DNA of 19,957 bases from Candidatus Micrarchaeota archaeon. Lineage in GTDB: Archaea > Micrarchaeota > Micrarchaeia > Anstonellales > Bilamarchaeaceae. Numbering within the stretch: position 1 is the stretch's first letter; the number at the start of each line of letters is the position of its first letter. The stretch covers positions 1 through 19,957 of the forward strand of contig JBFMCO010000057.1 in assembly GCA_040754495.1 (NCBI GenBank). Reading direction: 5' to 3'. This document shows positions 3-17,630 of the stretch, one piece after another. Under the pieces are notes generated by a model that worked only from the letters and a program-made list of their open reading frames with translations, was not told the DNA's origin and did not search any database. The translations under genes were made by a program, and so were the position numbers.

Positions 3-3000
3 CTTTTCCTTGCCGCAGAGGAGGTCCGCATCAACGGGGGGCAGGAAGACGCGGCGGTCGAATTCCGCAGGGAAGCCGTGAGGGCGGCCGAGGACATGTC
101 TGGCGGAGCGGCATGGGCGGAAGGGAACCTCGCCAGGACGCTGGCGAATTTCCTCTCCGGAGAACTCGAAACGGCAGCCAACGGCCGCTGGCTCGGGGAG
201 CATCAGGACATACAGGGCCTGCTCCGCGATATTGCCGCAAACCTCCATGCGCTCGCAGAACGCCCCGAAGGCGCCACGGCGGAGGACTTCACGCGCGGCA
301 GGGCCGCGCTCGGCATCGCTTCAGACATGGAACAACGGCTGACCGGCCGCCACCCGCCGGCATCCGAATCAATTCAGGGTGCCCTGGCAGTCTACGGCCG
401 GGCGCTCGAATCGCTGAAAGAAAGCGGAGACATAGAAGCGGCGCTCGGGGAGGCGTCCCTTGGAGCAGCGTATCTTTCTGCCGGCAGCGATGAGGAGAGG
501 CACGACATCGAAACTCTTTCGCTTGCGCTTCACGATGACCCGGCGCAGCTTTCCCGCGTCAGGGATTACGTGGAGCTAAGTGGGAGGATCGCCGGCTTGG
601 AAGAAGAAAGGGACATGCAGAGGGAAGGAAGCGCAATGCGCGCAAACCTCGACACCATCATAGCCGAACTCGGACGGGCCGCGGCCAGGATAGCTGCGGG
701 GGGCGGGCTGGCCGACGAAGCCTGGGTTTCGCAGGAGGAAGAGGACCTGAGGGGACGCGTCCTCGTGGATGATAATACAAGGCGCATGGTTGAAGACTAT
801 GCCGCCCGGAACCAGATGTCGCTCGAAGATGCCATCCATACCATTGCGACGCAGCAGGCGGAGGCGCGGGCCGGCGTGCTGCTTACTGCCGGAGAAAAAA
901 TGCTGGAGGTCCTTGGCGGCCTCCGGGGCTCTGCCCGCAGCGAGGCTGCGGAGATTTTCGGCTTCGCAATAAGCGCGGCAATTGAAGGCCGCATCGATGA
1001 CGCCGGCTTGTTCATGCAGGCTGCCAGGTCATACGCAGGGCTTGAAAACGATACGGACAGGGAAGCGATTCTCAGGGTATGCCGGGAGTATAACGGCTCT
1101 TTCGTGGAAGAGTATGCCGGACCTGTTCTTGACGGGGGAACTGCAGAACGCATGCTGCGCGTGCAGCAGGAGCGGGCAAGTTACCTGGGAGCCGTAACGG
1201 ACAGGGAGCTTCGCCGAAATGCGACCGCGTATTTCGACCTTGCATTAATGGCAGCCGAGGGCATTGACGCGGCCGACGCTGAGTTCGTGCTCCACCTTGC
1301 CGTCTCATACGCCCGGGCCGCAGCCCTGCCTGAGCGCACGCTCGGCGCGGTGTTGCGCGAGGAGAGGGGCGAGGTCATGGCGCTGGCCGAGCAGCAACTT
1401 GGCGATTACAGCGAATTCAGCGGGCGCCGCGACACCACTGTTGCCAGCGGCAGGATACTCAACCTTGGAACAGAAGAATCGAGGCTCAGCGAGTCGGACA
1501 TTACCGGCCCCGTCGCGGTTGCGCTCGTAACGCAGCGGCCGGTGAAGGAAGCCATCGGGGAGGCGGAAGCGCTTGCAAAGTCCATCCCCCTGGCTGAGGC
1601 TGACATCGCCGCGCTCGGTATCGGCCGGCTCGTGGAGCTGGAAGGCAGGCTTACGGCATTCGAGAGCGCGGCCGACCTGTTCGCATTCGAAGAGCGCCTC
1701 GCGGAAGCGAGAGGGACGGATGAGCGGCGCAGCGAAAGAAGATATGGTTCCGAATCGGAAAGGCTGCTCCGGGAAGCTGAGCGCGCAAGGGCGGCGGGCG
1801 ATTCAGAGCTTGCGGAATGGTTTGCCATGCAGGCAGGGCTGATAGACCGCGGCTCGGTTACAGGGATGCTTGATAGCGCACGGGAGATATTCATCAGCGG
1901 CCAGGAGATGCTTGGGGCTGCGGTCGAGCGCGGGCGCGAGGCCGCAAGGGCCGACGCCGCCGGAAACAGCGAAGAAGCGCTCCGGCTCAGGATGGAAGCG
2001 TTCGAGATGGAGCGCCAGGGTGCCCGCCTCATAGACGCCGCGGACCATGCAGTAGCGGCCCTTTCCGATTTTGACAGGAGCGTGCAGCGCATCACGACAA
2101 GGCAGAGGGAGGATGGCCGCCTGGAGCTTTCGGTGAGCGCCAGAACGTACATCGCCATTGGGGAGAGCAGGGATGTGGACCTTCTCGGCAATCCGGTTGC
2201 CGCACCTGTCGAAGCTGGGGCGGAAGCAGTTGCAGCGTCATTAACCGAAGAACGCATCGCCACCCTCACTCAGAACGCACGCTCGGCCCAGCAATCCGGA
2301 AGCCAGGCAGTCCGGCAGCAGGCAGCAATCCAGAGAACGCGCGGTCAGCTCATGGACCAGGCGGAGGCCGGACTCCACCGGGCGAACCTTGAAAATGCCA
2401 GGCGCCTTATCGAGCCGCTCATCATGATGCTCCCCGAAGCCGAGAGGCAGGAGCATACGGAGCGCCTTGATGCCGCCTATTCATCAGGCAATGTGGCAGC
2501 CCTCCAGGAGCTTTACATGGAGCTGGCCGGGGAGGATTTCCCCGATACCGGCATACCTGCCACAGATTCGCAGGGGCGGGCCACATATGACATAACGGCA
2601 GTCGAGCAGTCTTACCAGCGCGTGCGCAGGCTTGCATGGAGCGAGAGTTTCGGGGCTGCGGGCAGGGAACTGGGCGAAGGCGTTACGGCCATGCAGACGA
2701 GCTTCGAAGCAACCCAGTCCGCCCTGAGGGACATCCAGTTGGTGGGGGTTGGCAATGCGGCCCGGTACGGGCGCGGAGTGGCGGAGGCGCAGGCTGCACA
2801 GCTTGCCGGACAGCGTGACGTTGCCCTCGGCGGGGCCATGTCCGGCTACATAGGGGCTGCGGAGCAGACAGACCCGCAGGTGCTGGCAGCCCTGGTAATC
2901 AACTACGTAACCGACCCGGCAGAGCGGAGAAGGCTTCTGGAGAGGCTTTGCCAGCCCGGAATGCAGGGCGAGGCCGGTGAAGAGGCCAGGAGGCAGCTGC

Positions 3001-6000
3001 TTGAAGAGCTCGACGCCATCGAAGTACATGACCCCCTTTCGGGTGCGACGACTACAATCAGGGACATGCTCACCAGCGGCGAGCTTGCGTATTACCATAT
3101 TGATACGTACGTGAGCGGGCCGAACGGATTTAACGACATCATCGACATGGTCGAGCGGGGCGAACTCGAGAACGCATCCGTGCTTCTTGGCGCCCTTCAG
3201 ACAGAGGTGGCAAGCGCTTACGTGGCGCAGGAACTTGATTCCCGCGCCCTCGGCCAGGCGTATGTCGTGGGCATAAGGATGCAGGATGGGGGAGGGCGAC
3301 TTGTTGAATATTCCGGGGAAGGTCCCAGGCCTGAGGACAGCATCGAAGTCACCGATGGACTGTTGTGGGTGCGGACCTACAGCGGCGGCATATGGGAGGA
3401 ATTCGACGAAACAGCGCCCCCTGAAGAAAGCAGCCGCCATCTTGAGCAGCGCATGAGAAGGGCAAGGGCCCTGCTGCCAGTCCTTGAGGCCCTTAGCGAC
3501 AGCATGGGCCGCAGCGCGGCAGAGCATTACGAGGCAGCGGCCTCATACCGCGCCGCCCGCGACGGCATACTCAACGGTGAGGCGCCGCTTGAGCTAAACC
3601 CGGCCCTCGCAGCGGACCTGCTTACCGGGTTGGACAATGCCGCAGCAGAGGGGATGCTGCCCTCAGGGGTCCAGACTCTGAGATACCGCCGGATGGTTGC
3701 AGGCATCGAAGCTGCCACAGACCCTGCTGAAAAGGCCCGGAGGGCGCAGGAGTTTTTCCTGGCAATCGGCCGCGACCCGCAGGCGCTTGGAGCGGCCCTT
3801 GACGGGATAGACGCACTCCCGCAGGGGGTGCAACTGCTTACACCCTTTACGAATACAGCTCTTGCACATCTTACTGGAATGGAGCAGGAGGCGCTCGCCA
3901 CGGAACATGACGGCCAGAGGCAGGTCGCATGGACCTTGTCCAGGACGTGCCTCAGGAACATGCAGGTCCAGCTCAGGATGGGCGATGACGCGGAGACGTA
4001 CAGGTACGAAACCAGCCAGCAGACCAGGCGCGAGGCGGAGGTGTATGGATGGGTCGCACCCACTTCGACGTCGGCGTATCATCGCGAGCTTGGGGGGAGG
4101 CGGGCCGCGCTAGCGCTCACGATTCTGGACGAGGAAAACGACAGGAGGGCGAGGGACATCGTGTATAATGGGGAAACCGTTGCCACCCATCAATATTCAT
4201 TCGAACCGCTTGGCATATCCGCAGGCACTGTCCACATCCAGGTGGCCCAGGAATTGATGACTCTCAATTACTTAGAGACTATGGAAATCCAGTCGTACGT
4301 AGAAGCGGACATCTCCGACATTTCCACACAGGCCCTCGGCTACATGGCCGCGAGGCTCTCGCGGCTCGACCTTGCACAGATAGGCCTGGCCACGGAAGTG
4401 ACCACTGACGAGAACCGGCGGCTTATTATGACGCTCAGTCCCGTCATGGTGGCTGAAGTCAGGCATGATGCGAACGGCAATGTCATGACAGACGAGTCTG
4501 GAAATCCGATAACCGATATGGTGCCCCTGGACCGGGCAAGCCCGGAAGTGCGGGCGGAGTATTACCAGCGCCTCGGGATGCTCCAGGAGCAGTCCATGCG
4601 GCTTAATGACATTCTGCTTGGAGCATTCTTCGCCCATGACACGAGCTGGGGCGAGAATCCGCAGTACAACCTCATGTCCAGGATGAACAGCAGGACGGAG
4701 TCATTGGACCAGGCGCTTTCCTGCCTCTTCAGATGGGCCGGCGCAACTCCGGAACAGCGGCCTGAGGAGCTCCGCGGCTTTGACGCACTGTACAATGTGA
4801 GCGTCCCGATTACTGCCGAATCCGGTTACCGCGATACGGATGCAGACACAAACGCCACCCTGTCGGACCTCAGAATGTGGCAGACCGGGCGCAGGATTGT
4901 AGGCATTGCCGGCACGATGGTTGAGGCGGGGGTCGGCGTGGTCCTGGCGGCGCCCACAGGCGGCGCGTCATTGTTTATCACAGGAGCCCATATGGGCGCA
5001 GAGGGAATAATCGGCGGAATAGAGATGTACCGGCAGCAAGGGGAGATGACATGGAGCGCTGGGTTCCAGATAGTGACCGGCGCATTGGGAATCCTTCTCC
5101 CCATCGGCACGATGGCTTCCGGCATGAGGGCTGTCGCCATGCCTGTTGCCGCGATGGAAGCCGGCGAAGCGCTTGGGACCGGCGCCGCACGGACCGGCGC
5201 GCTCTACAGGCTGATTGGACAGCCAGGAATGGCACCAGAGATGTATACCACTGGACAAAGGTTTGGCCAGTTCTTCCTCGGCGCGCCTGAGGCAGGCATT
5301 TTAGACAGGGCAGTGCAGTTCGGCGGGAGCATGCTCATGCTGAGCGGCGGTGGCATGTTCATTGCTCAATCCGTTCCGGGGCTGGCGGCTGCAATCCAGA
5401 GCGACGAGACCAGGTGGTGGGATTATGCCGAGCTTGCGCTCGGCGGCTTCCAGAACCTGGCGCTTCCGGCCATACAGGCACGCGCGAACATGCTTTATGT
5501 TTCGCAAAGGTATGCGAGCGGCGGCGCGGTGACGCGCTCGCTGACGAGGCAGATTGTCGAAGCGATGACTATTGGGACTCCCATGGATACACCGTTCGGA
5601 TTCGGGGTGGCAAGGGCCCAGTACGAGGCGAACCGCAGCTTCACCGAGCTTTCGCGCGCCGACCCCGCCTTCGCGGACAATTATCATTCTTTCATTGCAC
5701 GAAGCGGCATCGCGTTCACCCCGAGGCAGGAAGCGGAAGTGCTTGCGATTTACCGGGACGCGCATGCTGAAAACCCTTCCATCAGCTTCCATGAGTTCGC
5801 CGCCGGGGAGGGCGCAGGCTCGGCGCGGTTCCGCCAGATTTGCAACGAGTCCGCGCTCGAAGCTGTCATGACCGGCAGGGCGTCGTTTTCAGACCTCGAC
5901 CCTTCGCAGAGGGCTTACATCGAGACAAGGTATGGGTTCGAGAACCCCAACAGCCCTGAAGCGATTGCGGCTGCGGACCGGGCTGCGAGCGAGGCCGGAA

Positions 6001-9000
6001 TGGCCGCAGCCGGGCGCGAGGTGGAAGCGGCCGCAGCGGCGTGGTCGGCGCAGCAGCCGGCGGCGCCCCGCATGCCCCCTGCGGGCGAAATCGAGGCGAG
6101 GCTGACTGCAGCGGAAGAGGCCGATGCGCAGGCTGCGGCCGCGCGGAGGACGCAGGAGCAGGCTGCCCTTTCAAGGCGGCTGGACGTCCAGTTCACGGCC
6201 AGGGAGGGTACTGATTACATAATGGGACGCGGCGAGAGCGCCATCAGATATTCGCGGGAGCATTTCCAGGGGGCCGCGGATATTATTTATCGCGCAGAGG
6301 AGATACTAAGATTGCCGGAGGGCGACGCGCGCACGGCTGCACTTGAGGCGCTGCCGGAGAACGTGCGGACGCAGGTCCGTGACCTAGTGCTCGACAGGGA
6401 ATTTGTCGAGGCTGCGAGAAGCGGAAACTCGAGGACGAAGCTGATGCTCGGCCTGGAGAGGGCTGCGTATCTGCCAGAGATTGCCATGCGACCCGAAGTG
6501 ATGGCAGCCGGATATGCCACGGAGGCGCAGCTTCTTGCACAGAGGCGGGAGATAGGACCGGAAAGGCTTCTGGATTACGCCGCCCAGCGAAGGGAAGACG
6601 CAACCAGAATAAGAACCGAAGCGCAGGAGGCGCTGAGGCATGCTGAGGGGCTGCTTGCAAGGCCGGACAGGACGCCTGAGCAGAGAGGCAGGATTGAGGA
6701 GGCGATAGCGGCTGCGAGGGCCCGGCTCGCGATGGCGGATGCCCTGGACAACAGCGCGCTCATCCTTGAGCATGCTGCGACGGCCAGAAGGGAAGGAGCC
6801 GCGGCGCCTGCAGTTCCGCAAGAGGCGATTGAGGAGCCGGTGACCCCGCAGATAATTACCCCGCGATTGAGCGAGAGGCTGCGCTCCGTAGGGGTGGAGC
6901 TTACGCCGGAAACCAGCCACCAGCTTGAGGGTGATATCGGCGATTTGAGGGCAGGCATCATCACCCTTAACCAGTTCTGGGAGAGGCTCGGCCGCATAAT
7001 GGGTGGCAGGCCGGAGGCGCTGCCAGCGACCCTGAGAATGGACAGGCCGATCCCATCTTTCGAGGAATTCGGCCTTGTTCTCCAGAGCCCCGAGGCGCTC
7101 AGGTTCTTCGTAGAGGTAACCGCAGAGGCGCTGCCGCAGGTCTTCGCTCCCCCGGAAACGGCAGGGCTTTCCGAAACTGCGAGCGTTAATGTCGGCTTCG
7201 TGTCATTCGATTTGAGGAGGCAGAATTTCCTGAACTCGCTGGCGAGGGGCATCAGCAGGGTTACCGGCGACGTGAATGTCTATGAATATTTCACAAGAGT
7301 CGTCCGCGATGCGCCTGCCGAAGTGAACAGGCGGCTTGCCGCGGAAGGGCTTGACGCTACGGTCACCTCTGCTGCCTTCGGCACCAGCTCGGATGAATCC
7401 GGATTCCTGATAATGGCCAGGGATGAGCGCGCAAGAGGCAGGGCGCGCGAAATACTCGATGAAGTGCTGAACGAGAGCTTCAGGTTCGAGGGAAGCGCCC
7501 TTGATTATGTAACCAGGGGGACGGCAATCAGGCCGTATATCGAGGAGATATTCGCCACAAGAGGACGGGTCGGGACCGGCGGGGCTTTCGTGGAGCTTTC
7601 GGTCGCGGACTTCCGGCAGATGGCTGGCGAGCGGGGCGGGGTGGAGGGTTTCATAGATTTCATGAGGCGCATGGCAGACTCGCATATAGAAGCCGAAGAC
7701 TGGGTTAGGCAGGAGGCAGGCGTTCCCACCACCGCTGAGCTTCCTGAAACGTCCCTGCATTTCATGTCCGATGCGGTTCTGGAGAGGCCGTACATTGAAG
7801 AAAGCGGGAGGATGGGCGAAAGATACAGGACAAACCAGGACTACATGGACAGCGTCTTCGACAATCCGCAGGTGAGGGAGAACGATTCGGTAGTCGTTAT
7901 CGAAGGCGGACTGACCATCACAGACAGGAGCAGCGAGGCATATGCGACCCTGGCCTCGCTCGGCGCGAAAAAGGGCAAGATGTATGGTGCCACCACCGAG
8001 GGCAGGGTGGGCCTTTCCGTCTCCAATCTCCCCTCCCAGGCATCCGGAGAGGAGTTCCTTTTCGTGAACAGGGAGGCGGCAAGGAGCGCAGCCGACAGGT
8101 TTGCCGCAGAGCACGGAATCAGCCCTGAAACAATCGAGATAAGGCAGACGGGGGCCGGGCCGGACTTCGTATTTGTAGTAAGAGGACGCCGGCTGGAGGC
8201 TGCCGATGTCCAGGAACTCCTCGGATATTACCGGGAGACGGGCCAGGAGCTTTTGAGCGGAGAGTTCGGCGTGTCGGCCAGCGGAGTGCTGCTTACAGGA
8301 GAGAGGATAAACTTCAGTGATTACCGGGCTGCAATGAGATACCTGAAGGACGGGGCAGCATTCGGCGACATGTCTGCTGGCCCCGAAGGCAGATATGTGC
8401 CGGTGGAGGAAATTCCGGCCGATTATACTGCACGGGCCATGAGGCTTGATGGGGCAGGAAACATCCTTGGCCTCTTCCTTTCATCCGAGAGCATATCTTC
8501 CAGCGATACGGCAATGGCCCAGCAGCTGGCGCGCCTTGCGGGCGAAAGCTTTGTAGCAGATTTCAGGGCATTCATGCAGAGGGAGCACATTTCCATAAGA
8601 AACTGGGAGGACCTGAGGGTCGCGCTTGAGGGGTTCCCGGGAGGGGAAGGGATTATTCGGACGCTTTCCGGCGACGACTTCCTTCTCTTCGTGGAGCGGC
8701 AGTATCCCGATGCGACTCAGCAGCGGGCGGCTGCTGCGATAAGAAGGGCCGAGGCCGAGAGGAGGGGGGAGAACTTCGAGCGGCCTTTCGAAGAGGAATT
8801 CCCCGTAGCGCCACAAGAAGAGGTGGCTGCGATGGCTGTGGGTGCGGAGGAGATGGCAGCTCCGGCTGAGACCGCCCCCCACGGAGTTCCCGAAGCACAG
8901 GTTGTGCCACTTGAAGCACCGCGTTCCGTCGAGGCTCGACCAGCATACGAAGTAGGGCCGCGGCCGGAGGGAGCCGAAAGGCTGCGGGGAAGAGATGCGC

Positions 9001-11882
9001 CAAGGCCGAATGACTTCATCGGCATGGCCCCGAACGACGAGGCGCTTTCAGGCAGAGGTGTGCGCTACGCCGGGCCGTTCAGGCTCCAAGAAGGAACACG
9101 GGTTGCAGAATTCACGGTTACGCGAGGGGAAGGCGAGCCTCCGATTCAGATACGGATAGCTGAAGCCGATGACGCGACGCTTGCAAGGCTCGGCATCAGC
9201 AGAAAGGAGTATTTCCTGCAGCAGCTCGACATGGCAATCCGCTCACCCGGCAGAGGGCCGGGCGGCGGAGGAGCTTCTGGCCCGGGAGGAGAGGGGGCCC
9301 CGGTTGCCGCAGGCGAGCCGCATGCCGCTCCGCATATAGAAATTACTCCACGGCCTGAGGCACAGCCGGCCGAAGCACCGGTCTCTTCGCAGTTGAGGGC
9401 AGCCGCAGACGAGGTAATGGAAGCCCGCAGGGCGGCCGGGAACGAGGCCCTTGTTTCCCGCGAGGCAGTCGATGCCGAAGTGAGCTGGGCTGCAAGGTAT
9501 GGCGCGGGCCGCCAGCCCGAAACGGCTCTTGAGAAGCTGCTGTTCCATGCCGCTGATAGCGCGGCGGCGGCAGCCCGAGCCCGGGGCGGCGAAGTACAGA
9601 CGAGGGAGGTCACAGCATTCCATGCGATTGAGCAGATAAGCATCGGGGCAGGCCAGCTCATGCACGAGGTTATGGCAGGGCGGCTGCCGCAGGAGTTCAG
9701 GCGCAAGTACGAATTCGGGATGGCAAGGGCCGCCAGCCAGGGGCGGACCCAGCCCACACTCGAGGATTTCATGTTCGGCTTCGCTCTTGCCAACGAGGCC
9801 GGCCCGGTGTTCGGGAGCTATATACAAGCCGCCATGGAGCGGGCTTCTCCCGCCGGTGCGTTCCGGGACATAGAGGGGTATGCATTGACCGCATTGTCTC
9901 TGGCAGACCGCATGAGGAACCCCGTGACAGCGCTGACAAGCAGCGGATTCCAGAGCTGGATTGTCAAGAGTGCGCTAAACGAGGTATTCGGCCTTGCCGC
10001 CAGCCTCCATGTGGCTGGAGTTCACGACCCCCTGGCGCTATTCATAAATCCCGACGCCGCAGGCCATCCCAAAAACGCAGGCCTGCTTGATTTGTTCCCT
10101 CCAACCAGTGGCGAGGATTCTTTCTTTGACCTCTCGGATGCGGCGGGGTCGTTTGCCAGCATCCTTGCGAAGATACCTTCGGGAGAGCTTCCAATTACGA
10201 GGCAGGTCGGCGCCAGGCAGTTTGAGGCCGCAATATCTGCGCCGGAGGCCATCCAGGCTGTTTTCGCTTATACCCTTGCAGACATAAGACGGCTTCCCGA
10301 CTCGCTCTCGAGAAGGTCATATTTATCCAATCTGGCTGAGCCGTTCTCATGGACCGATTCGCTGAGCAGGGGGCTTGGAGAGGTACTCATCAACGACCAG
10401 GGGCAGGTATCGGCTCCACGCATAACAGACAGGCGCACGCCTCTTCTTGCATATGGCCTCGCATCACCAACAAACAGGATGCTTGCTGAATATTTGGGAA
10501 GCAGGGCCGCATTGAAGAAACTTGACCCCAACGCGAATTTCAGGGCAGCTGTCGACCTTGCCCAGACAGTGGAGGAAGTGACATGGGCGGTCAATCACCC
10601 GGAGCAGGCCGGTGCAGTTGGCCGCAGCGAGCGTATGAGAGCGTGGCTGGACGTTGTCGAGGGGATGCTGCAACGGCTACCAGCATCCGAAAGCGAGGGG
10701 ATGCTGGGCAGCGTAATGCCACAGCTCGTGAGGGTAATGAGGCATTTCCGGAACGGCCGGCTGAGCGCAGAACAGTTGGGCGAGGTCTGCCAGCTCCTCT
10801 CAGGCGCGCAAAGCGTCTCCGAGTTCAGGTCGCTCTTCGGACAGTGGTATAACAGGACGTTCTTCTCGGACCTCCAGCTCAGCGACGCCTTCGTTGCAGA
10901 CAACGTGGACGTTTTGCTTGACTTCGGCGGATACCGCGAGAACCTGGAAAGATTCACATCCGGCGGCGAGAGGCCTGCTGCGAACCACGAAATCTTTGCA
11001 GGCAATCCCAGGTATGCAGCAGTAAACCCGTATGCGGCCCGCAACCGTCCGGAGGCTTACGATGAGGTCATAGGGGTGCTGGAGGAAGCGATGCGCGCAA
11101 GGGCAGCCGGGCCGGAGGCTTTCGCAAGATTCAAGTTCTCCGAGGAATTTCACTCTGAATTGCAGGGAACGTATAGCCGGCCGTTGCAGCTTGATGCGGA
11201 TTACACAAGGCAAGGGGGTGTGGAAAGCGGAACGGCGCAGGGGGAGGCGATATTCCAGGTATGGCGCCAGGAGCACACCGGCCATGAGTTCAGCGCAGGC
11301 GGCAGGACTTACCAACTGAGCGAGAGCGGCTCTTTCGAAGCGGGGTTCTACAGTGCCCGCATACGCGGCGAGCAGAGCTGCCAGGATCCGACGAACCCGA
11401 ATCCGCACGTTGTCGTGGCGGGCCTGACAGGCACGGTGGAGCTTCCATGGGTGAAGACCATAGCTGTGAGGCTTCCGGATTTGCCTGACACTGTTTTCAG
11501 AAGAACACTCGTCCTTGTACAGGGAGAAAACGGCCCAATCCTGCTGGTGCAGCCGGAATACCACCAGCCGGACCTGCCAGGCTTGGACGCAATGAATGCA
11601 GAGGTGCTCGGTTATCTCAGGGGTATATATGAGCCGCTGGGGGTGGAAGTCAGGGATGTTTCCAAGGCGAGCATTAGGGAGGGCGGGGATGTGACCGGAT
11701 TCAGCACTTTCAGCAGCGGCCGCTCGCCGTTCTTTTACCTGGACAGCGACATGTGGCATTTTGTAGCAGGCCCGCACCAGATGGGCCAGAACGGCCTTCA
11801 TACCAGAAGAAGTGGAGAAGCGGTCGGATTCCCGGCCGAGTGGAGCGGAAGAATAGACCTTGAAGCGGCATACAGAAGGTGA
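3..11882 (+). CDS. Giant (>=3959 aa, 5'-truncated by the window) Ala/Glu/Arg-rich, Lys-depleted multidomain protein; putative membrane-inserting effector or giant receptor
   Basis: Uninterrupted frame from nt 3 (CTT TTC CTT GCC GCA GAG..., LFLAAEEVRINGGQEDAAVEFRREAVR) to TGA at 11880-11882. The GTG at 78 in the ORF track is internal, so the true start is upstream of the window. An 11.9 kb open frame cannot be chance. The function is inferred from its modules. Confidence 0.95.
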   Translation, partial: LFLAAEEVRINGGQEDAAVEFRREAVRAAEDMSGGAAWAEGNLARTLANFLSGELETAANGRWLGEHQDIQGLLRDIAANLHALAERPEGATAEDFTRGRAALGIASDMEQRLTGRHPPASESIQGALAVYGRALESLKESGDIEAALGEASLGAAYLSAGSDEERHDIETLSLALHDDPAQLSRVRDYVELSGRIAGLEEERDMQREGSAMRANLDTIIAELGRAAARIAAGGGLADEAWVSQEEEDLRGRVLVDDNTRRMVEDYAARNQMSLEDAIHTIATQQAEARAGVLLTAGEKMLEVLGGLRGSARSEAAEIFGFAISAAIEGRIDDAGLFMQAARSYAGLENDTDREAILRVCREYNGSFVEEYAGPVLDGGTAERMLRVQQERASYLGAVTDRELRRNATAYFDLALMAAEGIDAADAEFVLHLAVSYARAAALPERTLGAVLREERGEVMALAEQQLGDYSEFSGRRDTTVASGRILNLGTEESRLSESDITGPVAVALVTQRPVKEAIGEAEALAKSIPLAEADIAALGIGRLVELEGRLTAFESAADLFAFEERLAEARGTDERRSERRYGSESERLLREAERARAAGDSELAEWFAMQAGLIDRGSVTGMLDSAREIFISGQEMLGAAVERGREAARADAAGNSEEALRLRMEAFEMERQGARLIDAADHAVAALSDFDRSVQRITTRQREDGRLELSVSARTYIAIGESRDVDLLGNPVAAPVEAGAEAVAASLTEERIATLTQNARSAQQSGSQAVRQQAAIQRTRGQLMDQAEAGLHRANLENARRLIEPLIMMLPEAERQEHTERLDAAYSSGNVAALQELYMELAGEDFPDTGIPATDSQGRATYDITAVEQSYQRVRRLAWSESFGAAGRELGEGVTAMQTSFEATQSALRDIQLVGVGNAARYGRGVAEAQAAQLAGQRDVALGGAMSGYIGAAEQTDPQVLAALVINYVTDPAERRRLLERLCQPGMQGEAGEEARRQLLEELDAIEVHDPLSGATTTIRDMLTSGELAYYHIDTYVSGPNGFNDIIDMVERGELENASVLLGALQTEVASAYVAQELDSRALGQAYVVGIRMQDGGGRLVEYSGEGPRPEDSIEVTDGLLWVRTYSGGIWEEFDETAPPEESSRHLEQRMRRARALLPVLEALSDSMGRSAAEHYEAAASYRAARDGILNGEAPLELNPALAADLLTGLDNAAAEGMLPSGVQTLRYRRMVAGIEAATDPAEKARRAQEFFLAIGRDPQALGAALDGIDALPQGVQLLTPFTNTALAHLTGMEQEALATEHDGQRQVAWTLSRTCLRNMQVQLRMGDDAETYRYETSQQTRREAEVYGWVAPTSTSAYHRELGGRRAALALTILDEENDRRARDIVYNGETVATHQYSFEPLGISAGTVHIQVAQELMTLNYLETMEIQSYVEADISDISTQALGYMAARLSRLDLAQIGLATEVTTDENRRLIMTLSPVMVAEVRHDANGNVMTDESGNPITDMVPLDRASPEVRAEYYQRLGMLQEQSMRLNDILLGAFFAHDTSWGENPQYNLMSRMNSRTESLDQALSCLFRWAGATPEQRPEELRGFDALYNVSVPITAESGYRDTDADTNATLSDLRMWQTGRRIVGIAGTMVEAGVGVVLAAPTGGASLFITGAHMGAEGIIGGIEMYRQQGEMTWSAGFQIVTGALGILLPIGTMASGMRAVAMPVAAMEAGEALGTGAARTGALYRLIGQPGMAPEMYTTGQRFGQFFLGAPEAGILDRAVQFGGSMLMLSGGGMFIAQSVPGLAAAIQSDETRWWDYAELALGGFQNLALPAIQARANMLYVSQRYASGGAVTRSLTRQIVEAMTIGTPMDTPFGFGVARAQYEANRSFTELSRADPAFADNYHSFIARSGIAFTPRQEAEVLAIYRDAHAENPSISFHEFAAGEGAGSARFRQICNESALEAVMTGRASFSDLDPSQRAYIETRYGFENPNSPEAIAAADRAASEAGMAAAGREVEAAAAAWSAQQPAAPRMPPAGEIEARLTAAEEADAQAAAARRTQEQAALSRRLDVQFTAREGTDYIMGRGESAIRYSREHFQGAADIIYRAEEILRLPEGDARTAALEALPENVRTQVRDLVLDREFVEAARSGNSRTKLMLGLERAAYLPEIAMRPEVMAAGYATEAQLLAQRREIGPERLLDYAAQRREDATRIRTEAQEALRHAEGLLARPDRTPEQRGRIEEAIAAARARLAMADALDNSALILEHAATARREGAAAPAVPQEAIEEPVTPQIITPRLSERLRSVGVELTPETSHQLEGDIGDLRAGIITLNQFWERLGRIMGGRPEALPATLRMDRPIPSFEEFGLVLQSPEALRFFVEVTAEALPQVFAPPETAGLSETASVNVGFVSFDLRRQNFLNSLARGISRVTGDVNVYEYFTRVVRDAPAEVNRRLAAEGLDATVTSAAFGTSSDESGFLIMARDERARGRAREILDEVLNESFRFEGSALDYVTRGTAIRPYIEEIFATRGRVGTGGAFVELSVADFRQMAGERGGVEGFIDFMRRMADSHIEAEDWVRQEAGVPTTAELPETSLHFMSDAVLERPYIEESGRMGERYRTNQDYMDSVFDNPQVRENDSVVVIEGGLTITDRSSEAYATLASLGAKKGKMYGATTEGRVGLSVSNLPSQASGEEFLFVNREAARSAADRFAAEHGISPETIEIRQTGAGPDFVFVVRGRRLEAADVQELLGYYRETGQELLSGEFGVSASGVLLTGERINFSDYRAAMRYLKDGAAFGDMSAGPEGRYVPVEEIPADYTARAMRLDGAGNILGLFLSSESISSSDTAMAQQLARLAGESFVADFRAFMQREHISIRNWEDLRVALEGFPGGEGIIRTLSGDDFLLFVERQYPDATQQRAAAAIRRAEAERRGENFERPFEEEFPVAPQEEVAAMAVGAEEMAAPAETAPHGVPEAQVVPLEAPRSVEARPAYEVGPRPEGAERLRGRDAPRPNDFIGMAPNDEALSGRGVRYAGPFRLQEGTRVAEFTVTRGEGEPPIQIRIAEADDATLARLGISRKEYFLQQLDMAIRSPGRGPGGGGASGPGGEGAPVAAGEPHAAPHIEITPRPEAQPAEAPVSSQLRAAADEVMEARRAAGNEALVSREAVDAEVSWAARYGAGRQPETALEKLLFHAADSAAAAARARGGEVQTREVTAFHAIEQISIGAGQLMHEVMAGRLPQEFRRKYEFGMARAASQGRTQPTLEDFMFGFALANEAGPVFGSYIQAAMERASPAGAFRDIEGYALTALSLADRMRNPVTALTSSGFQSWIVKSALNEVFGLAASLHVAGVHDPLALFINPDAAGHPKNAGLLDLFPPTSGEDSFFDLSDAAGSFASILAKIPSGELPITRQVGARQFEAAISAPEAIQAVFAYTLADIRRLPDSLSRRSYLSNLAEPFSWTDSLSRGLGEVLINDQGQVSAPRITDRRTPLLAYGLASPTNRMLAEYLGSRAALKKLDPNANFRAAVDLAQTVEEVTWAVNHPEQAGAVGRSERMRAWLDVVEGMLQRLPASESEGMLGSVMPQLVRVMRHFRNGRLSAEQLGEVCQLLSGAQSVSEFRSLFGQWYNRTFFSDLQLSDAFVADNVDVLLDFGGYRENLERFTSGGERPAANHEIFAGNPRYAAVNPYAARNRPEAYDEVIGVLEEAMRARAAGPEAFARFKFSEEFHSELQGTYSRPLQLDADYTRQGGVESGTAQGEAIFQVWRQEHTGHEFSAGGRTYQLSESGSFEAGFYSARIRGEQSCQDPTNPNPHVVVAGLTGTVELPWVKTIAVRLPDLPDTVFRRTLVLVQGENGPILLVQPEYHQPDLPGLDAMNAEVLGYLRGIYEPLGVEVRDVSKASIREGGDVTGFSTFSSGRSPFFYLDSDMWHFVAGPHQMGQNGLHTRRSGEAVGFPAEWSGRIDLEAAYRR
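936..1313 (+). repeat. Pair of 34-aa TPR-like helical repeats within the giant protein
   Basis: RSEAAEIFGFAISAAIEGRIDDAGLFMQAARSYA (936-1037) and RRNATAYFDLALMAAEGIDAADAEFVLHLAVSYA (1212-1313) align ungapped with 12/34 identities, at a 92-codon period. Confidence 0.55.
4896..5474 (+). other. Gly/Ala-rich hydrophobic multi-helix segment (membrane insertion/translocation-type) of the giant protein
   Basis: IVGIAGTMVEAGVGVVLAAPTGGASLFITGAHMGAEGIIGGI, WSAGFQIVTGALGILLPIGTMASG, AVQFGGSMLMLSGGGMFIAQSVPGLAAAI and WWDYAELALGGFQNLALPAI. APTGGASL lies at 4950-4973. Confidence 0.7.
7188..8780 (+). other. Tandem degenerate GGDEF/palm (nucleotide cyclase-like) modules in the giant protein
   Basis: Module 1: FVSFDLRRQNFLNS...TGDV...FGTSSDESGFLI...RVGTGGAF...FMRRMADSHIE matches the GGDEF order DxDxFKxxND...GD...GGDEF...SIG...RRAD. 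Further signature-like motifs are SGEEFLFV (8043), AGPDFVFVV (8154), and MRLDG (8439) with IRTLSGDDFLLFV (SGDDF at 8667-8681). Confidence 0.55.
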
Positions 11883-11883
11883 G

Positions 11884-12447
11884 ATGATGGAGGAATATTA
11901 CAGCTTGCTCAGGAAAAGATTCACGACCGTAATGGTCGGTACCGACCAGCGTGAGAGGGAAAACGAGCGCAAGGCCCTCGAGATGAGCGAGAGCCCGGAT
12001 ATACGAAAAATGGCCGGGATAGCCGATGCAATCCATAAGGCCGTCCGGAGAAACGGCTCTCCGGATGAGCTCCTCAAGGCCATGAAAGCGTTCGATGAGC
12101 TGCCCGGAACCTCTTTCTGGTCATCGTGCATGGAGGAGGCAGCCGGGGTAGTGCTTGCCAGAGCGCTTTCGCTCGGACAGGAGGATCCCTGCAAGCCTAA
12201 GATGCTTGAGTATGGCGTCGCGATGGCCGGTCGTGCAATGTCTGCCGGCTTCCCGTTGTCGAAGGAGACAGTGTCCCGCGTGAAAGCCGTGAAAGAGGTA
12301 GAGCCTGCGCTCTCCAACCTGGTGGACATCGCCCTCATGATGAACTCCGCCCTTACTCCATCCAGGCCGGAGGGGACCCAGTTCAGGCCGAAGGCAAAAG
12401 AAGGCGAAGTGAGGGGCAGGACACGTGGCAGGGTCGCATCGGGATAG
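11884..12447 (+). CDS. Hypothetical helical protein (187 aa), coupled to the giant ORF; candidate immunity protein or chaperone
   Basis: ATG at 11884, 1 nt after the giant ORF's TGA (TGA-G-ATG-ATG). Normal Lys content (13/187), predicted helical, basic C-terminal tail QFRPKAKEGEVRGRTRGRVASG. Confidence 0.85.
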   Translation: MMEEYYSLLRKRFTTVMVGTDQRERENERKALEMSESPDIRKMAGIADAIHKAVRRNGSPDELLKAMKAFDELPGTSFWSSCMEEAAGVVLARALSLGQEDPCKPKMLEYGVAMAGRAMSAGFPLSKETVSRVKAVKEVEPALSNLVDIALMMNSALTPSRPEGTQFRPKAKEGEVRGRTRGRVASG

Positions 12448-12448
12448 C

Positions 12449-12457
12449 TTATAAATA
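12449..12457 (+). promoter_or_regulatory. Archaeal TATA box (leaderless) for the 12479 gene
   Basis: TTATAAATA starting 30 nt upstream of ATG 12479, in an AT-rich intergenic gap. Confidence 0.7.
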
Positions 12458-12478
12458 GGTCGCTATAGATAGTAAAAT

Positions 12479-13369
12479 ATGGATAAAATACCTGTCCTGC
12501 TCGCATTCGGAAGGCACTGGGACCGGACAGACGGGCTGATTACCCCGCCGGACAGGGGTTTCTACAGGAAAGCCGCGCTTCCGTTCATAGACCGGGAAGT
12601 CCTCGGCGCAGGGCGGAAAGCAACCTTGATACACGAGTGCCGGATAGTAGTTTATCCGCAGGGCTGCGACGATAAGCAGGCGAGGGAATATGTGAGGGAA
12701 GCGCTTGCAGCCGAGGAATCAGCCATACTCGCCATGCTCTCCGATACTGTCGATCGCGGCCTCCCGCTTCCAGGTGGCCTGCGCGACGAGCTGGACTGGG
12801 GGCTTCTGGACCGCATCATGGAAATCAACCGCTCGGAGCCGGGAAGAATCAGGAATGCGATCGAGCACCAGACGCCCGACCAGGTTTATCTTGCGCTTTC
12901 ACGGAATCACCACGACGAGGGCTTGGATGAAGATGCGAGGCGGCGGGAAAGGATGAAAGAAAGCATAAGGACCTCCATTGCGGTGTCCAAGCACAGGAGC
13001 AGGGAGGTGATGCGCCTCGTCGGCGAGCTCCTGGAGGAGGACCCGGGCCATGCGATATTGATTACGAGGGGCTATGCCCATGCCGGAATGGCGCGCCTAT
13101 TCGACCCTTCGAGATTCGCAGTCGAGTCCCATGCGGGAGGAACCCTCTCGCCCCGCATCTCCAGCGATGCCATCATCGCGTCTTATGACAGGGATTTGAG
13201 CGATACCGAGCTCGGGCAGTATGCAAGGCAAAGCATAGCATTCTCGGATTATTTTGATTCCAACTGGAACGGCGAACCATACCGCTCTCTTAGGGAGGGC
13301 GGTGCTGTCATAGAGGGCATACAGCTCCTGAAAAAGCACGCGCGGGAGCATGCCCTCGCCGTGGCCTGA
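12479..13369 (+). CDS. TIKI/TraB-PrgY-GumN/EreA/ChaN superfamily-like metallohydrolase (296 aa)
   Basis: Motifs in superfamily order: N-terminal strand plus FGRH (His 12515), strand plus LIHE (Glu 12635), HRSREVM (equivalent of RN..M), and strand plus ITRGYAH (His 13079; GxxH motif). Confidence 0.6.
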   Translation: MDKIPVLLAFGRHWDRTDGLITPPDRGFYRKAALPFIDREVLGAGRKATLIHECRIVVYPQGCDDKQAREYVREALAAEESAILAMLSDTVDRGLPLPGGLRDELDWGLLDRIMEINRSEPGRIRNAIEHQTPDQVYLALSRNHHDEGLDEDARRRERMKESIRTSIAVSKHRSREVMRLVGELLEEDPGHAILITRGYAHAGMARLFDPSRFAVESHAGGTLSPRISSDAIIASYDRDLSDTELGQYARQSIAFSDYFDSNWNGEPYRSLREGGAVIEGIQLLKKHAREHALAVA

Positions 13370-13377: not shown

Positions 13378-14157
13378 TCAGAGAAGCCCCTTGTAATGGT
13401 AATACGGCCACCCGACGGAAAATTTATCAGTGCCGTAAGGCCCCATCAGCTCACCGCTGATGAGCTTTTTAAGGAGGCGGCTAAAGAGGTCGGGCATTTC
13501 GCGCTTAAAGTCAAGATATGCCGCATAGCATAATCCGTGCATCTCGCGGGCATTCTTCCATCTCCGCTCAGGCAGGAAGAAATCGGAAAGCCTTTGATTG
13601 AAGAAAGCGACGAACAATTCGGCTTCCCGCTGCTTGGCCGAAGCGTCGGCGGAACTCTCGAATATTACATCCGGCACGTACCTCGCTGCACCGGCGAGGA
13701 AGAAGAAGGCCGAAACGGCGCACGTTGTTTCCATGTCCCGCTCCTCTGCGGGGAACTTCTCGAACCTCGGGGCCATGAACTCTTTTGCGGTTTTTTGGAG
13801 CTGGTTCCTGGCGTGCTCTGGTACCGCGGCGAAAGCCTTGCGCTCCTTCTCCTCGCGCTCATCCTTCGCGCTCTTTGGGAGCGATTCCGCTATTTCCTCG
13901 GATAATTGGACAAGGAAGACCGAGGACCTTTGATATGGCTCGAGTGTTGCAAAAAGGCGATTGCCGTTGCCTCGGATTTCGTCAAGCTGGCGGACGATGG
14001 GTGAAGGCAGTTGCGAGCGGGTGGTATTTGAGGCAAGGTATCTTCCCATGACGGCGCGTGCCCGGGTAACTCCGGCTGAAGCGGCGCCCGAAACGGGCCG
14101 CTTCTCGGGCCTGCCCCTATCGCCGTCAAAGACGCCAAGGTCTCCCCTCGCAGCCAT
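13378..14157 (-). CDS. Hypothetical helical protein (259 aa)
   Basis: Clean ORF convergent with the 12479 gene (8-bp gap). TATA box 28-29 nt upstream of its ATG. No recognisable motif. Confidence 0.85.
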   Translation of the reverse strand: MAARGDLGVFDGDRGRPEKRPVSGAASAGVTRARAVMGRYLASNTTRSQLPSPIVRQLDEIRGNGNRLFATLEPYQRSSVFLVQLSEEIAESLPKSAKDEREEKERKAFAAVPEHARNQLQKTAKEFMAPRFEKFPAEERDMETTCAVSAFFFLAGAARYVPDVIFESSADASAKQREAELFVAFFNQRLSDFFLPERRWKNAREMHGLCYAAYLDFKREMPDLFSRLLKKLISGELMGPYGTDKFSVGWPYYHYKGLL

Positions 14158-14226: not shown

Positions 14227-15183
14227 CTAGGCCTCCCGGCACGCTTCGTCGTAGCACGTCCAGGGCTGGTAGCAGAACGGCCCTTCATCGTCCTCGCAGC
14301 ACGGCGCATCCTGATACCCGCAGCCGGTGCGCTCGATGAAAGCCTGCGTGACTATGAAATAGTCGTTGACTCGTGCGACTCCGATTCCGGTCTCGTCAAA
14401 CCTCGTCTCGAGAATATTCGCCTTGTGGCCCGCGCTTCCCATCCAGCCGCCGACTATAATGGACTCGAGCTGGCTCTGGCTGAGCCAGTGGATAGCCGAC
14501 CATCTCACCCGCGTGGCGTTTTTCACAAAGTCGAGGCGTTCCTCGTAGTCGGCGCTCACGCGGGCTGCCGCGTCCTCGCCTTCGTATTCGTGGACTATCT
14601 GGGTGCCGGTCTCCGGGCAGTCTTCAGGCTGGTTGTAGGTGAGCGCGTAATCCCAGGCGGATATCATGAAGATGTTCTCCCCGGCCGCGCTGAAGTAGAA
14701 TACGCTCCGGTTATAGAGCCGGTCGGTTTCGTAGAGCCCGAAATCGAAGCCCTCGTGGTGGATGAAAGGCCTCTTGCAGAAAAGCGACGGCTCGGTGAGG
14801 GGCTGATTCTCCCTGGCGAGGCTGAGGCTGTGGTCCCGCGCCACCGAAGCCACGTCGTCGTTCCACTTCAGCGGCGATATCCCCGCCTTTATCCGCTCGG
14901 CGTTTATCAGGTCGAACAGCCTTTTTTCCATCCCGGCGAGGGAGTAATTCTCGGTCTGGTTGGCGCTCATGTTCCCGATTACCGCTGCCGGAGGCGGCTG
15001 GCCGCTGACGTTTATGTACTGGACTATGATGGGCGTCGCGTTCTGGACCGGCGGCTCGCGCACGAAATAGTATTGGGTGGTGTTGAGCTGGGGCGGCTGC
15101 TCCGGCTCCTGCGGAGCTTCGGCCGGCGGCGATGAGACGCACCCGAGCAGCGCTAGCGCGATGAGAAGATATGGGAGCCTCAT
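14227..15183 (-). CDS. CAP (SCP/PR-1/YkwD) domain lipoprotein with an internal insertion and a C-terminal 6-Cys mini-domain (318 aa)
   Basis: Signal/lipobox MRLPYLLIALALLGC, then a Pro/Gln linker. CAP motifs LINAERIKAGISPLKWNDDVASVARDHS, HHEG, GENI, WMGSAGHKANIL and TGIGVA...TQAF. Start set at ATG 15183 because the TATA box is 28 nt upstream (the track start at 15198 is too close to it). Confidence 0.92.
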   Translation of the reverse strand: MRLPYLLIALALLGCVSSPPAEAPQEPEQPPQLNTTQYYFVREPPVQNATPIIVQYINVSGQPPPAAVIGNMSANQTENYSLAGMEKRLFDLINAERIKAGISPLKWNDDVASVARDHSLSLARENQPLTEPSLFCKRPFIHHEGFDFGLYETDRLYNRSVFYFSAAGENIFMISAWDYALTYNQPEDCPETGTQIVHEYEGEDAAARVSADYEERLDFVKNATRVRWSAIHWLSQSQLESIIVGGWMGSAGHKANILETRFDETGIGVARVNDYFIVTQAFIERTGCGYQDAPCCEDDEGPFCYQPWTCYDEACREA

Positions 15184-15205
15184 GGAGGGGATAATCATCG
15201 GGAAA

Positions 15206-15256: not shown

Positions 15257-15763
15257 ATGGCTTCAATTCGCACGCTCACGAGGATTTATGCCGCGGAGGT
15301 CAGGGCCGAAGCCATGAGCCTTGAGGGCACCGCCGGGAGGCTGGAGGCACTCCGAAGGCAGCTCTCGGATTACAAGAACCTGTCTGAGGACAGACGCCGG
15401 GACAAGCTGAGATGGGCCCTTGCCAAGCTTGACGACACGGAAAAGTCGCTGGAGAAGGAGGCTGCAGGCGCCCGGGCCGGGGAGGAGAGCAGGCAGTTCG
15501 AGCACAAGTCGAAGGCCATAGGCAGGGTAGCCAAGTTCGTCGGCTACATAGGCGTCCTGCAGTTCGCATCCGAAGCCTTCAGCCGCCTGGCCGGGAGCAC
15601 GTACCTGAGCCTGGCCGTACCGGCGGCGATAGCCGCGGCCGCGTTCATTTTCGTTTCGAAGGCAGTGGATGCCGTCGTGGGCACATCATTCGACGAGAGC
15701 GTGAAGAGGCTCGGCAATGCAATAGAGGAGTGCCGCGGGGCAATACTGAAGGCGCAGGGATAA
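15257..15763 (+). CDS. Coiled-coil plus 2-TM membrane protein (168 aa)
   Basis: Charged heptad-like N-terminal half, then hydrophobic FVGYIGVLQFASEAF and YLSLAVPAAIAAAAFIFVSKAVDAVV. TATA box upstream. Confidence 0.85.
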   Translation: MASIRTLTRIYAAEVRAEAMSLEGTAGRLEALRRQLSDYKNLSEDRRRDKLRWALAKLDDTEKSLEKEAAGARAGEESRQFEHKSKAIGRVAKFVGYIGVLQFASEAFSRLAGSTYLSLAVPAAIAAAAFIFVSKAVDAVVGTSFDESVKRLGNAIEECRGAILKAQG

Positions 15764-15798
15764 AAAACAGTTCCGGCAACTATTCCATTGGTGATGGG

Positions 15799-17031: not shown

Positions 17032-17412
17032 TCAGATAAGATGCAGGTCGATGTCTGCGAATTTCGCTATGTCCCTGAAATCCTTGTCCATCGTGATGAA
17101 TTTCAGCCCCTCCTTTTCGGCAGTGGCGGCAATAAGAAGGTCGGCCATCGGCTTGTCCTTGCCGCTTCCGACCAGCTCGGCCTTAATGTAGCCGGCGCGA
17201 CGTGCGATGTCCTCGCCTACACCCAGTATGGTGCAGCCATCAAGAAACATCTCCACGGCATCAATCGCGCGGTGGCCTTGCCGTTTCGCAGCCCAGACAA
17301 GCTCATAGACAGTGATGATCGAGATTGCGACGCCTTCCTCCCCGGCGCGGCGTTTCAGGGCCTCGTCGCCCCTCAGCCATGCCACTGCCGCCGAGGTGTC
17401 AAAGAACAACAT
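17032..17412 (-). CDS. vapC: PIN-domain ribonuclease toxin VapC
   Basis: MLFFDTS...ISIITVYEL...MADLLIAATA...ITMDKDF carries all four PIN acidic positions. It overlaps the antitoxin stop. An alternative GTG start is at 17421. Confidence 0.93.
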   Translation of the reverse strand: MLFFDTSAAVAWLRGDEALKRRAGEEGVAISIITVYELVWAAKRQGHRAIDAVEMFLDGCTILGVGEDIARRAGYIKAELVGSGKDKPMADLLIAATAEKEGLKFITMDKDFRDIAKFADIDLHLI

Positions 17413-17608: not shown

Positions 17609-17627
17609 GCATGCATATATGCATGCA
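17608..17627. promoter_or_regulatory. Perfect 20-bp palindromic operator over the vapBC transcription start
   Basis: TGCATGCATA-TATGCATGCA is a perfect inverted repeat between the TATA box and the vapB ATG. An extra GCATGC lies at 17641-17646. Confidence 0.75.
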
Positions 17628-17630
17628 AAT

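Follow-up and report, generated by a model that had tools for sequence, protein, structure and literature searches.

A giant modular protein with a predicted Cas10-like palm pair, a GNAT-like terminal domain and a cognate partner gene in a Micrarchaeota archaeon: a possible effector family

What function could a protein of at least 3959 amino acids (aa), encoded at one end of an archaeal contig, serve? The question is raised by contig JBFMCO010000057.1 of a Candidatus Micrarchaeota archaeon (assembly GCA_040754495.1), whose whole stretch of 19,957 nucleotides (nt) is here called the window and which belongs to a 1.63-Mb assembly of 72 contigs (∼80% complete, ∼60% GC). A first-pass annotation had read the locus as a contact-dependent effector system following the logic of MARTX, large clostridial and polymorphic toxins. 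On the basis of the analysis reported here, we give slightly less than an even chance to the possibility that this protein (the giant) is a modular effector, for which the small gene directly downstream, F3, encodes an immunity protein or chaperone. In what follows, G000 is this genome, other G-numbers are related genomes, C-numbers are contigs (C57 being the window) and L-numbers are extracted loci. Residues aa 1-3959 refer to the C57-encoded part of the giant, with aa 1 at window nt 3. The parts of the giant gene and its partner are as follows:

3 to 11882, forward strand: 3' part of the giant gene, 3959 codons, uninterrupted, open at the 5' side at the contig end (from the list of open reading frames (ORFs) and translation)
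3 to 4862, forward strand: conserved scaffold, aa 1-1620, Ala/Glu/Arg/Leu-rich, of helix-favouring composition
4863 to 5492, forward strand: Gly/Ala-rich hydrophobic block, aa 1621-1830 (hydropathy peaks; alignment with seven relatives)
5493 to 6752, forward strand: post-block conserved region, the end of the core, aa 1831-2250 (collinear alignments)
7008 to 7712, forward strand: palm 1 of module M, aa 2336-2570
7806 to 8420, forward strand: palm 2 of module M, aa 2602-2806, with the hairpin GAGPDF, not invariant
8424 to 8762, forward strand: all-helical domain (by DSSP) closing module M, aa 2808-2920, in a Cas10 D4-like position and containing RTLSGDDF
8853 to 9392, forward strand: Pro/Ala/Glu-rich linker, aa 2951-3130, 24 Pro in 180 residues, its start of low confidence in the model
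9393 to 10964, forward strand: pre-terminal region, aa 3131-3654, aligned in nine giants and always directly before the C-terminal domain
10965 to 11879, forward strand: C-terminal GNAT-like domain, aa 3655-3959, with Cys3793 at nt 11379-11381 (in 'CQDP')
11884 to 12447, forward strand: partner gene F3, 187 aa, of normal lysine content, translationally coupled to the giant

A survey of homologous loci revealed that the N-terminal core and the hydrophobic block are kept, that the core is followed by modules which vary from giant to giant, with Pro-rich linkers between them, and that the downstream gene tracks the C-terminal module. Because domain content varies and the downstream gene changes with the terminal module, the layout shares polymorphic-toxin logic, as had been proposed. 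The core (residues 1 to ∼2260) is collinear with giants of 2,700-6,800 aa, the alignments extending to query residues ∼2160-2280 in G011:C3, G023:C11, G022:C3 and C42, and in 11 of 24 same-genus genomes giants have N-proximal parts that are 25-35% identical to the scaffold. Outside the family, 16 genomes of the same order gave no match to the core. The profile built from the block and the post-block region (A7) matched 14 of 401 genomes sampled over the phylum, in a single family (13 of the 76 genomes there) and two genera, and always inside ORFs of 1,330-8,609 aa. The block itself comprises at least two strongly hydrophobic helices plus amphipathic segments in hydropathy analysis, and its layout (AP-TGG-SL turn, WT loop and L-PF) is kept in seven relatives; thus, of the Gly-rich membrane-inserting bundle proposed initially, a conserved Gly-rich hydrophobic block is observed, which may insert into a membrane. 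The description of the scaffold as TPR-like had to be given up, because internal repeats were undetectable within it (no off-diagonal matches), leaving its helix-favouring composition.

The family is a considerable investment for this reduced genome: at least six large genes led by F2, a small upstream gene family described below, together account for about 5.3% of the assembly. The paralogous giants on C22 and C42 resemble the present one in the F2-led operon start, core, block, serial modules and Pro-rich linkers, whereas the latter has the GNAT-like domain at its end, F3 as partner gene and no accompanying F1, F1 being a different, convergent family that accompanies other giants and is absent from this window. 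A literature search found no published description of this giant family. The assignment to a probable DPANN archaeon was borne out, because an archaeal small-subunit ribosomal RNA model scored 650 bits on C48 (bacterial model, 493 bits), ribosomal protein S19e was found too, and all 15 loci with the giant's C-terminal domain in a scan of named genomes came from metagenome-assembled genomes labelled Micrarchaeota, among them 'Ca. Bilamarchaeum sp.', which is placed in the genus of G000.

The C-terminal end of the giant had been annotated simply as an alpha/beta domain. Its predicted structure resolves a divergent GNAT-like core fold, and we consider it a predicted acyltransferase. Cys3793 is the sole invariant residue in 34 sequences of the domain, which have no conserved histidine. 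The loop at the place of the coenzyme A (CoA) motif, an equivalence judged by the order of secondary-structure elements and not by coordinates, reads VQPEYHQPD (Q3850, P3851 and Y3853) and is conserved as QPxY. An exhaustive profile search of 1.84 billion representative proteins found only 51 relatives, nearly all of them either located at the very C-terminus of large proteins (1,300-7,250 aa) or free-standing, at 270-380 aa; among the giants, the module is present in a subset and always at the very end. Free-standing copies of normal lysine content (∼270-340 aa) lie 1-2 kb downstream of giants in four relatives (L004:7928-8743, reverse strand; L008:6320-7156, L012:16772-17587 and L013:1112-1948, forward strand) and look like orphan cassettes or separate paralogues; the window itself has no such copy. 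In the G007:C16 giant, the frame shifts inside the GNAT-like domain (L012:14231-14660) and continues in the +1 frame after TAG, so that this copy is a pseudogene or else the assembly is in error there. Structurally, the domain's nearest neighbours in an atlas and a viral library include uncharacterised phage proteins and PcfJ-like proteins. No toxin family of Pfam, NCBIfam or PADLOC matched it. One distant relative, P0044 (1383 aa; E 6.7e-5), has upstream sub-threshold Pfam matches to a protein kinase (26.6 bits, cut-off 31.7) and Pre-toxin TG (19.7 bits, cut-off 23.5), a weak hint of a toxin-type context that serves as a lead only; the other weaker relatives have no Pfam family.

The small coupled ORF noted in the first-pass annotation was confirmed as a 187-codon frame at 11884-12447: the TGA of the giant (11880-11882) is followed by one base and then by ATG-ATG at 11884, the start of F3. 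Profile analysis placed F3 homologues directly after nine of nine examined giants ending in a GNAT-like domain, 1-15 nt past the stop codon, with a tenth copy at the start of a truncated contig, and G000 has exactly one F3 and one such giant. The idea that the small ORF is a variable cassette was discarded, as F3 is a conserved family tied to the terminal domain. Complex prediction for the terminal domain and F3 gave an ipSAE of 0.84 (best control, 0.39), a mark reached by 58 of 80 solved complexes and by 2 of 110 mismatched pairs, although these calibration counts hold only roughly because our own alignments were used. The runs shared at least 78% of contacts, with a predicted local distance difference test (pLDDT) score of at least 81 for the partner. 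The predicted interface includes domain residues 133-138, beside Cys139 (that is, Cys3793), and 198-208, the QPxY loop, which supports a model in which F3 would bind the terminal domain at its presumed active face, beside the invariant cysteine. The domain resembles GNAT acyltransferases, GNAT toxins of toxin-antitoxin pairs included, both in its core fold and in having a small adjacent protein, here one predicted to lie over this face. It should be noted that a greedy gene caller picks an antisense frame at 11898-12506 instead of the real F3 gene. Other antisense ORFs, of 100-350 codons, overlap the giant gene on the reverse strand (window 576-11801; for example, 2484-3527 and 10800-11801) and are most likely non-genes, being lysine-poor and Arg-rich as expected for GC-rich antisense frames.

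The second enzyme-like part, module M, had been described as a GGDEF/palm-like array, and two palm domains were indeed resolved. The predicted structure of aa 2250-2950 consists of two tandem GGDEF-type palms plus a helical domain, with Cas10 as the closest rank: Cas10 chains occupied the top ∼49 ranks of a Foldseek search with the model (best E 4.5e-6, 600-750 aligned columns), with global TM-scores of just 0.15-0.21, and a feature-based atlas search pointed to Cas10 palm2 and mCpol (scores 0.80-0.84; a lead only). Palm 1 keeps D2403-x7-N2411, G2422-D2423 and the hairpin S2462-x-D2464-E2465 ('SSDESGF'), and D2403-x7-N2411, G2422-D2423 and D2464-E2465 are invariant in the alignment. Thus, a palm fold with an acidic beta-hairpin and a D-x7-N / GD base-binding set is present, as judged from predicted structure and motifs. 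Palm 2 is probably degenerate or regulatory because its hairpin GAGPDF varies. A third palm, suggested in a companion note, was rejected, since RTLSGDDF falls in the all-helical domain of the model, where DSSP assigned helices only (model residues 559-671). We therefore regard module M as a predicted Cas10-like double nucleotide cyclase, in which palm 1 has retained the metal- and base-binding residue set.

Compared with Cas10 (Csm1/Cmr2), module M is alike in having two palms and helical domains in one chain, with one palm intact and the other degenerate-looking. However, the intact palm of Cas10 is the second, with GGDD, whereas that of module M is the first, with SSDE; in addition, module M is embedded in a ∼4,650-aa protein, and no HD domain, Csm/Cmr subunits or CRISPR array could be identified in the window (Pfam on window ORFs; Rfam, zero matches in the window). 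Minimal CRISPR polymerases (mCpol, Panoptes) have been described (PMC12657218), and the mCpol profile does not match module M. GGDEF cyclases (PF00990) form homodimers with GG[DE]EF, whereas module M has two palms fused in one chain, with SSDE and GPDF. Four canonical GGDEF proteins (PF00990, 99-134 bits) are encoded elsewhere in G000 (two genes at C45:28520-29707, and C12:890-1408 and C59:12322-12876); GGDEF signalling is considered rare in archaea. Module M was found in 6 of 99 family genomes. Its counterpart in G000, with 48.6% identity, is a segment of the second C42 giant, the only other G000 paralogue with this double-palm module, and the core best matches the first C42 giant (25-30%). 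Core and module M thus match different C42 giants, and module exchange within the genome is therefore indicated.

A further unusual property of the giant is its composition (Ala 14.9%, Glu 9.8%, Arg 9.3% and Lys 0.5%; isoelectric point 4.8). There are 21 lysines in 3959 residues, compared with a genome median of 4.15%. Lysine content is bimodal in the giant family (0-1% or 4-9%), and lysine-poor and lysine-normal paralogues are neighbours on C42 (3460-21906 and 26730-46706). Of the 368 Arg codons of the giant, 197 are AGR, which is one transition from Lys codons, and at the 38 Lys positions of the lysine-normal paralogue in module M the giant has R in 14. Such avoidance may point to exposure to a foreign or hostile milieu. 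Lysine avoidance as a mark of Sec export was rejected: apparently signal-bearing proteins made up 8% of ORFs with less than 1% Lys versus ∼12% of those with at least 2% (Fisher p 0.61), in a test that used a crude signal-peptide heuristic and a lysine-poor set contaminated by antisense artefacts.

The full length of the gene could be approached by recovery of its 5' end. That one open frame of 3959 codons runs from 3 to 11882 and ends with TGA was confirmed as annotated, and relatives reach 380-950 residues further upstream than C57 residue 1. The upstream part lies on C72, a contig picked out both by the F2 profile and by the N-termini of relatives, as a large ORF running off the contig end (L046:10045-12116). 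C72 ends with the same 10 nt (TTCTTTTCCT) with which C57 begins, a unique match (1 of 144 contig ends) across which the frame is unbroken, and both sides of the join align to adjacent positions (∼811 and 813) of the G022:C3 giant, the closest full-length relative. This evidence from sequence supports C72 as the holder of the missing 5' end and a giant of about 4,647-4,650 codons. The likely start codon of the merged frame, which has 4,650 codons, is a TTG that follows GGGGGAG. F2 occupies 9645-10076 of C72, followed by the giant ORF from 10045. Members of this family (∼110 aa, with a conserved central motif A-x-W-[DE]) lie directly upstream of 13 of 16 giants examined, and G000 has ten F2 genes; F2 could be a chaperone or secretion partner. 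Further upstream on C72 are genes for SufBD, glutamate dehydrogenase, PP2C, an alpha/beta hydrolase, a HEAT-repeat protein and an Rce1-like protease.

How could these parts work together? If the giant is an effector, its hydrophobic block would insert into a membrane, plausibly in the contact zone with a host archaeon, and the enzyme modules would act on the far side of that membrane, where the palm pair may make a (cyclic) di- or oligonucleotide and the GNAT-like domain may acylate a target. Inside the producer, F3 would act in the manner of an immunity protein or chaperone, by keeping the terminal domain from being active or by keeping it folded, and export would have to use a route that needs no Sec signal. 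The varying cargo on a conserved core, the shuffling of modules, the cognate partner, the orphan-like copies, the avoidance of lysine and the share of the genome (∼5.3%) can all be taken as supports for such a role, and the DPANN lineage fits a host-contact lifestyle.

Several results weigh against the effector role. The delivery and toxin parts of the original proposal were not supported. Neither a signal peptide nor an anchor is seen in the recovered N-terminus, which is hydrophilic (maximal 19-residue hydropathy of 1.32 over the first 700 aa), and the N-termini of full-length relatives are likewise all hydrophilic, with neither feature found. No secretion or conjugation gene could be recognised in the locus, the upstream neighbours being housekeeping genes. 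A processing protease, RTX/RHS-type repeats and known toxin or immunity families were not detected by Pfam, NCBIfam, PADLOC or repeat search (no off-diagonal matches in the giant at E <= 0.01). As to a cysteine protease domain, no Pfam family was matched at E <= 1 over the whole protein, and structure models covered ∼1,000 of the 3,959 residues. If the number of membrane spans is even and the N-terminus is untranslocated, both ends would lie in the cytoplasm of the producer. The terminal domain lacks the Q/RxxGxG/A acyl-CoA motif, and together with F3 it is conserved across species and not hypervariable. Profiles of GGDEF, Cas10-palm2 and mCpol (PF00990, PF22335 and PF18182) missed module M at E <= 1 in searches of G000 alone, in which PF00990 did recover the four canonical GGDEF proteins, and hhalign comparison of module M with those four GGDEF domains was non-significant (probability below 1%); the palm assignment rests on predicted structure and motif geometry because sequence profiles miss the module. 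Finally, domains of the cyclase and acyltransferase kinds occur just as typically in signalling and defence, and the polymorphic-toxin survey never mentions acetyltransferase, GNAT or GGDEF (PMC3482391). Because the searches brought up neither a signal nor a neighbouring gene for secretion, and neither a processing protease nor a known toxin domain, the effector role is something that we infer.

Library searches of the giant as a whole gave a similar picture. Pfam (down to E <= 1), NCBIfam, PADLOC and PDB sequence search gave no usable match for any part of it. A word-index search with the whole giant retrieved itself only, and one with the module M alignment retrieved nothing in the near and longer length classes; these blanks carry little weight because the tool missed known carriers.

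Comparison with known systems places the giant close to polymorphic toxins in organization and apart from them in components. Like CDI (contact-dependent inhibition), Rhs and LXG toxins, it has a conserved N-terminal part, exchangeable C-terminal modules and a small downstream gene that is specific to the terminal module and a predicted binder, with free-standing terminal-domain copies in relatives and several divergent paralogues per genome. In contrast to them, it has no known trafficking domain, signal peptide, RHS or filamentous-haemagglutinin repeats or releasing protease, its modules fall outside described toxin folds, no described immunity family is present, its terminal domain is conserved across species instead of hypervariable, and its host is an archaeon, classical polymorphic toxin systems being rare in archaea (PMC3482391). 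As far as these tests can see, the components of the giant are non-homologous to those of bacterial polymorphic toxins. MARTX and large clostridial toxins share with the giant a very large chain, an internal hydrophobic region and serial enzyme modules, but they have RTX or CROP repeats, a cysteine protease domain and receptor-binding repeats, none of which was detected in the giant; there are no type I secretion genes at the locus, and no sequence relation or fold relation was detected. Precedents exist for the predicted cargo: ExoY-like domains of MARTX toxins are nucleotidyl cyclases, and GNAT toxins are known from toxin-antitoxin pairs (TacT/AtaT type). Among archaeal giants, SPEARE-type proteins of Nanohaloarchaeota have serine protease, adhesion and restriction-endonuclease domains, which were not detected in the present giant (no Pfam family).

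Downstream of F3, the window contains the following features:

12449 to 12457, forward strand: TATA-box-like element TTATAAATA, 22-30 nt before the ATG of the next gene, a putative promoter element by its sequence
12479 to 13369, forward strand: F7, 296 aa, with conserved FGEH, WFDWG and RGYAH motifs
13378 to 14157, reverse strand: F18, 259-aa protein with no family match
14227 to 15198, reverse strand: CAP-domain protein with a lipobox-like start (LLIALALLGC) and a Cys-rich tail
15257 to 16911, forward strand: F22 (168 aa, one hydrophobic helix), then a 393-aa Arg-rich, lysine-poor (1.3%) protein with a Gly-rich C-terminal segment (15730-16911)
17032 to 17653, reverse strand: VapC (PIN, E 5e-19) and VapB pair
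17643 to 18413, forward strand: PD-(D/E)XK nuclease (E 4.5e-12)
19384 to 19872, reverse strand: DpnI-like gene (E 1e-12)

In relatives, F7 follows F3 or F6, a free-standing copy of the terminal domain; homologues were found in G022:C4 (two copies) and G009:C9. F7 had been called a TIKI-like hydrolase: its two GxxH-type motifs, FGEH and RGYAH, are invariant in four sequences and would suit a member of the TIKI/TraB/erythromycin-esterase superfamily, whereas Pfam (E <= 5) and PDB sequence search gave no match. PADLOC gave a weak and short CARF match (E 4.6e-4), uncorroborated by other searches, and neither CARF nor TIKI could be confirmed without Pfam or PDB support. A relationship of F5 to F7 was also rejected, hhalign being against it. 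Homologues of F18 lie beside other F2-led loci, in G024:C15 (just upstream of the F2 of that giant) and at G000:C65:67-903, the latter near one F2 gene and three F1 genes. A homologue of the CAP-domain protein (49% identity) adjoins the G021:C15 giant, and F22 homologues are near the G022:C3 and G021:C15 giants. The protein at 15730-16911, annotated before as a second Gly-zipper protein, does have a Gly-rich C-terminal segment, which stays under the hydropathy threshold. The right end of the window, with VapBC, the PD-(D/E)XK nuclease and the DpnI-like gene, forms a small cluster of defence or toxin-antitoxin type.

These neighbours and the topology of the giant bear on a second explanation, which we find not very likely, that it is a cell-autonomous signalling or defence hub, hairpin-anchored in its own membrane with both ends cytoplasmic. 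The scaffold would then sense a cue, for example a virus, contact with the host or stress of the envelope, upon which the palm pair would make a nucleotide second messenger, and the GNAT-like domain with F3 as its regulator would be the output or feedback arm. Such a hub would need no signal peptide, and none was found; with two clearly hydrophobic helices, the N- and C-termini would come to lie on the same side of the membrane; wherever they have been characterised, Cas10 and GGDEF palms act as signalling enzymes; and the canonical GGDEF proteins of G000 indicate that nucleotide signalling exists there. The right flank, with its toxin-antitoxin and nuclease genes, and the CARF-like match of F7 could be counted in the same direction. 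However, no CARF, SAVED or similar sensor or effector was confirmed, the CARF match of F7 being short and uncorroborated, and F7 tracks the terminal domain and not module M. Module swapping, divergent paralogues and module-specific partners are more typical of offensive polymorphic systems, and it is not obvious why a protein resident in the cytoplasm should avoid lysine to such an extreme degree. The alternative offered in the first-pass annotation, a membrane protein whose cyclase-like domains are cytoplasmic, may likewise apply.

It is improbable, in our judgement, that the giant is a structural component of the symbiont-host junction, envelope or cytoskeleton, with the scaffold as tether, ruler or junction part and the enzymes as accessories. 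More than half of the protein is a helix-favouring scaffold without catalytic motifs, the family takes ∼5% of the genome, and a part in attachment has been discussed for giant proteins of other DPANN lineages, all of which would suit such a role. On the other hand, adhesin-type repeats, Ig-like or beta-rich domains and a signal peptide were not found, the palm 1 motifs and the invariant Cys are among the best-conserved elements, and the swapping of modules between paralogues suggests that the modules are under diversifying use.

Very improbable is a polyvalent protein encoded by an integrated virus or mobile element that would enter a recipient cell along with DNA, since the phage and PcfJ-like structural neighbours of the terminal domain and the toxin-antitoxin and restriction-type genes at the right end of the window are set against housekeeping neighbours (SufBD and glutamate dehydrogenase), a GC content of the locus equal to that of the genome, no integrase, capsid, terminase or conjugation genes seen in the locus, several chromosomal copies per genome in one archaeal family only and, as seen so far, stable syntenic chromosomal placement across species, so that a mobile-element origin was rejected as unsupported by the neighbouring genes.

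The modular effector with F3 as immunity protein or chaperone can also be put in a stronger form, which we advance tentatively and consider doubtful as a whole: an effector family directed at the host, which would have arisen inside a single Micrarchaeota family and whose giants would insert into the membrane of the host archaeon by their Gly-rich block and present interchangeable enzymes to the host cytoplasm; module-specific partners would protect the producer, and lysine avoidance would block lysine-directed tagging or degradation in the host. With the same reserve, the enzymes would be a Cas10-like nucleotide cyclase, a Cys-dependent GNAT-like acyltransferase and kinase-like modules in paralogues.

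The molecular basis of the attachment of DPANN archaea to their hosts, and of their exploitation of them, is largely unknown. The giant family likely matters to the biology of this organism, because about 5% of its DNA is spent on giants that no domain library recognises, and it offers testable parts: a predicted cyclase with named residues, a predicted acyltransferase with one invariant cysteine and a predicted binding partner. Lysine-free and lysine-normal paralogues in one genome provide, in addition, a clean natural experiment. If the giants are not delivered, a Cas10-like palm pair would still be found outside any CRISPR context, a finding of relevance to the recruitment of such signalling enzymes. 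If they are delivered to a host, polymorphic-toxin logic would have arisen independently in archaea. Should the host-directed reading be true, the family would be an archaeal counterpart, evolved independently, of bacterial polymorphic and MARTX toxins and would give a first molecular handle on host manipulation by DPANN archaea.

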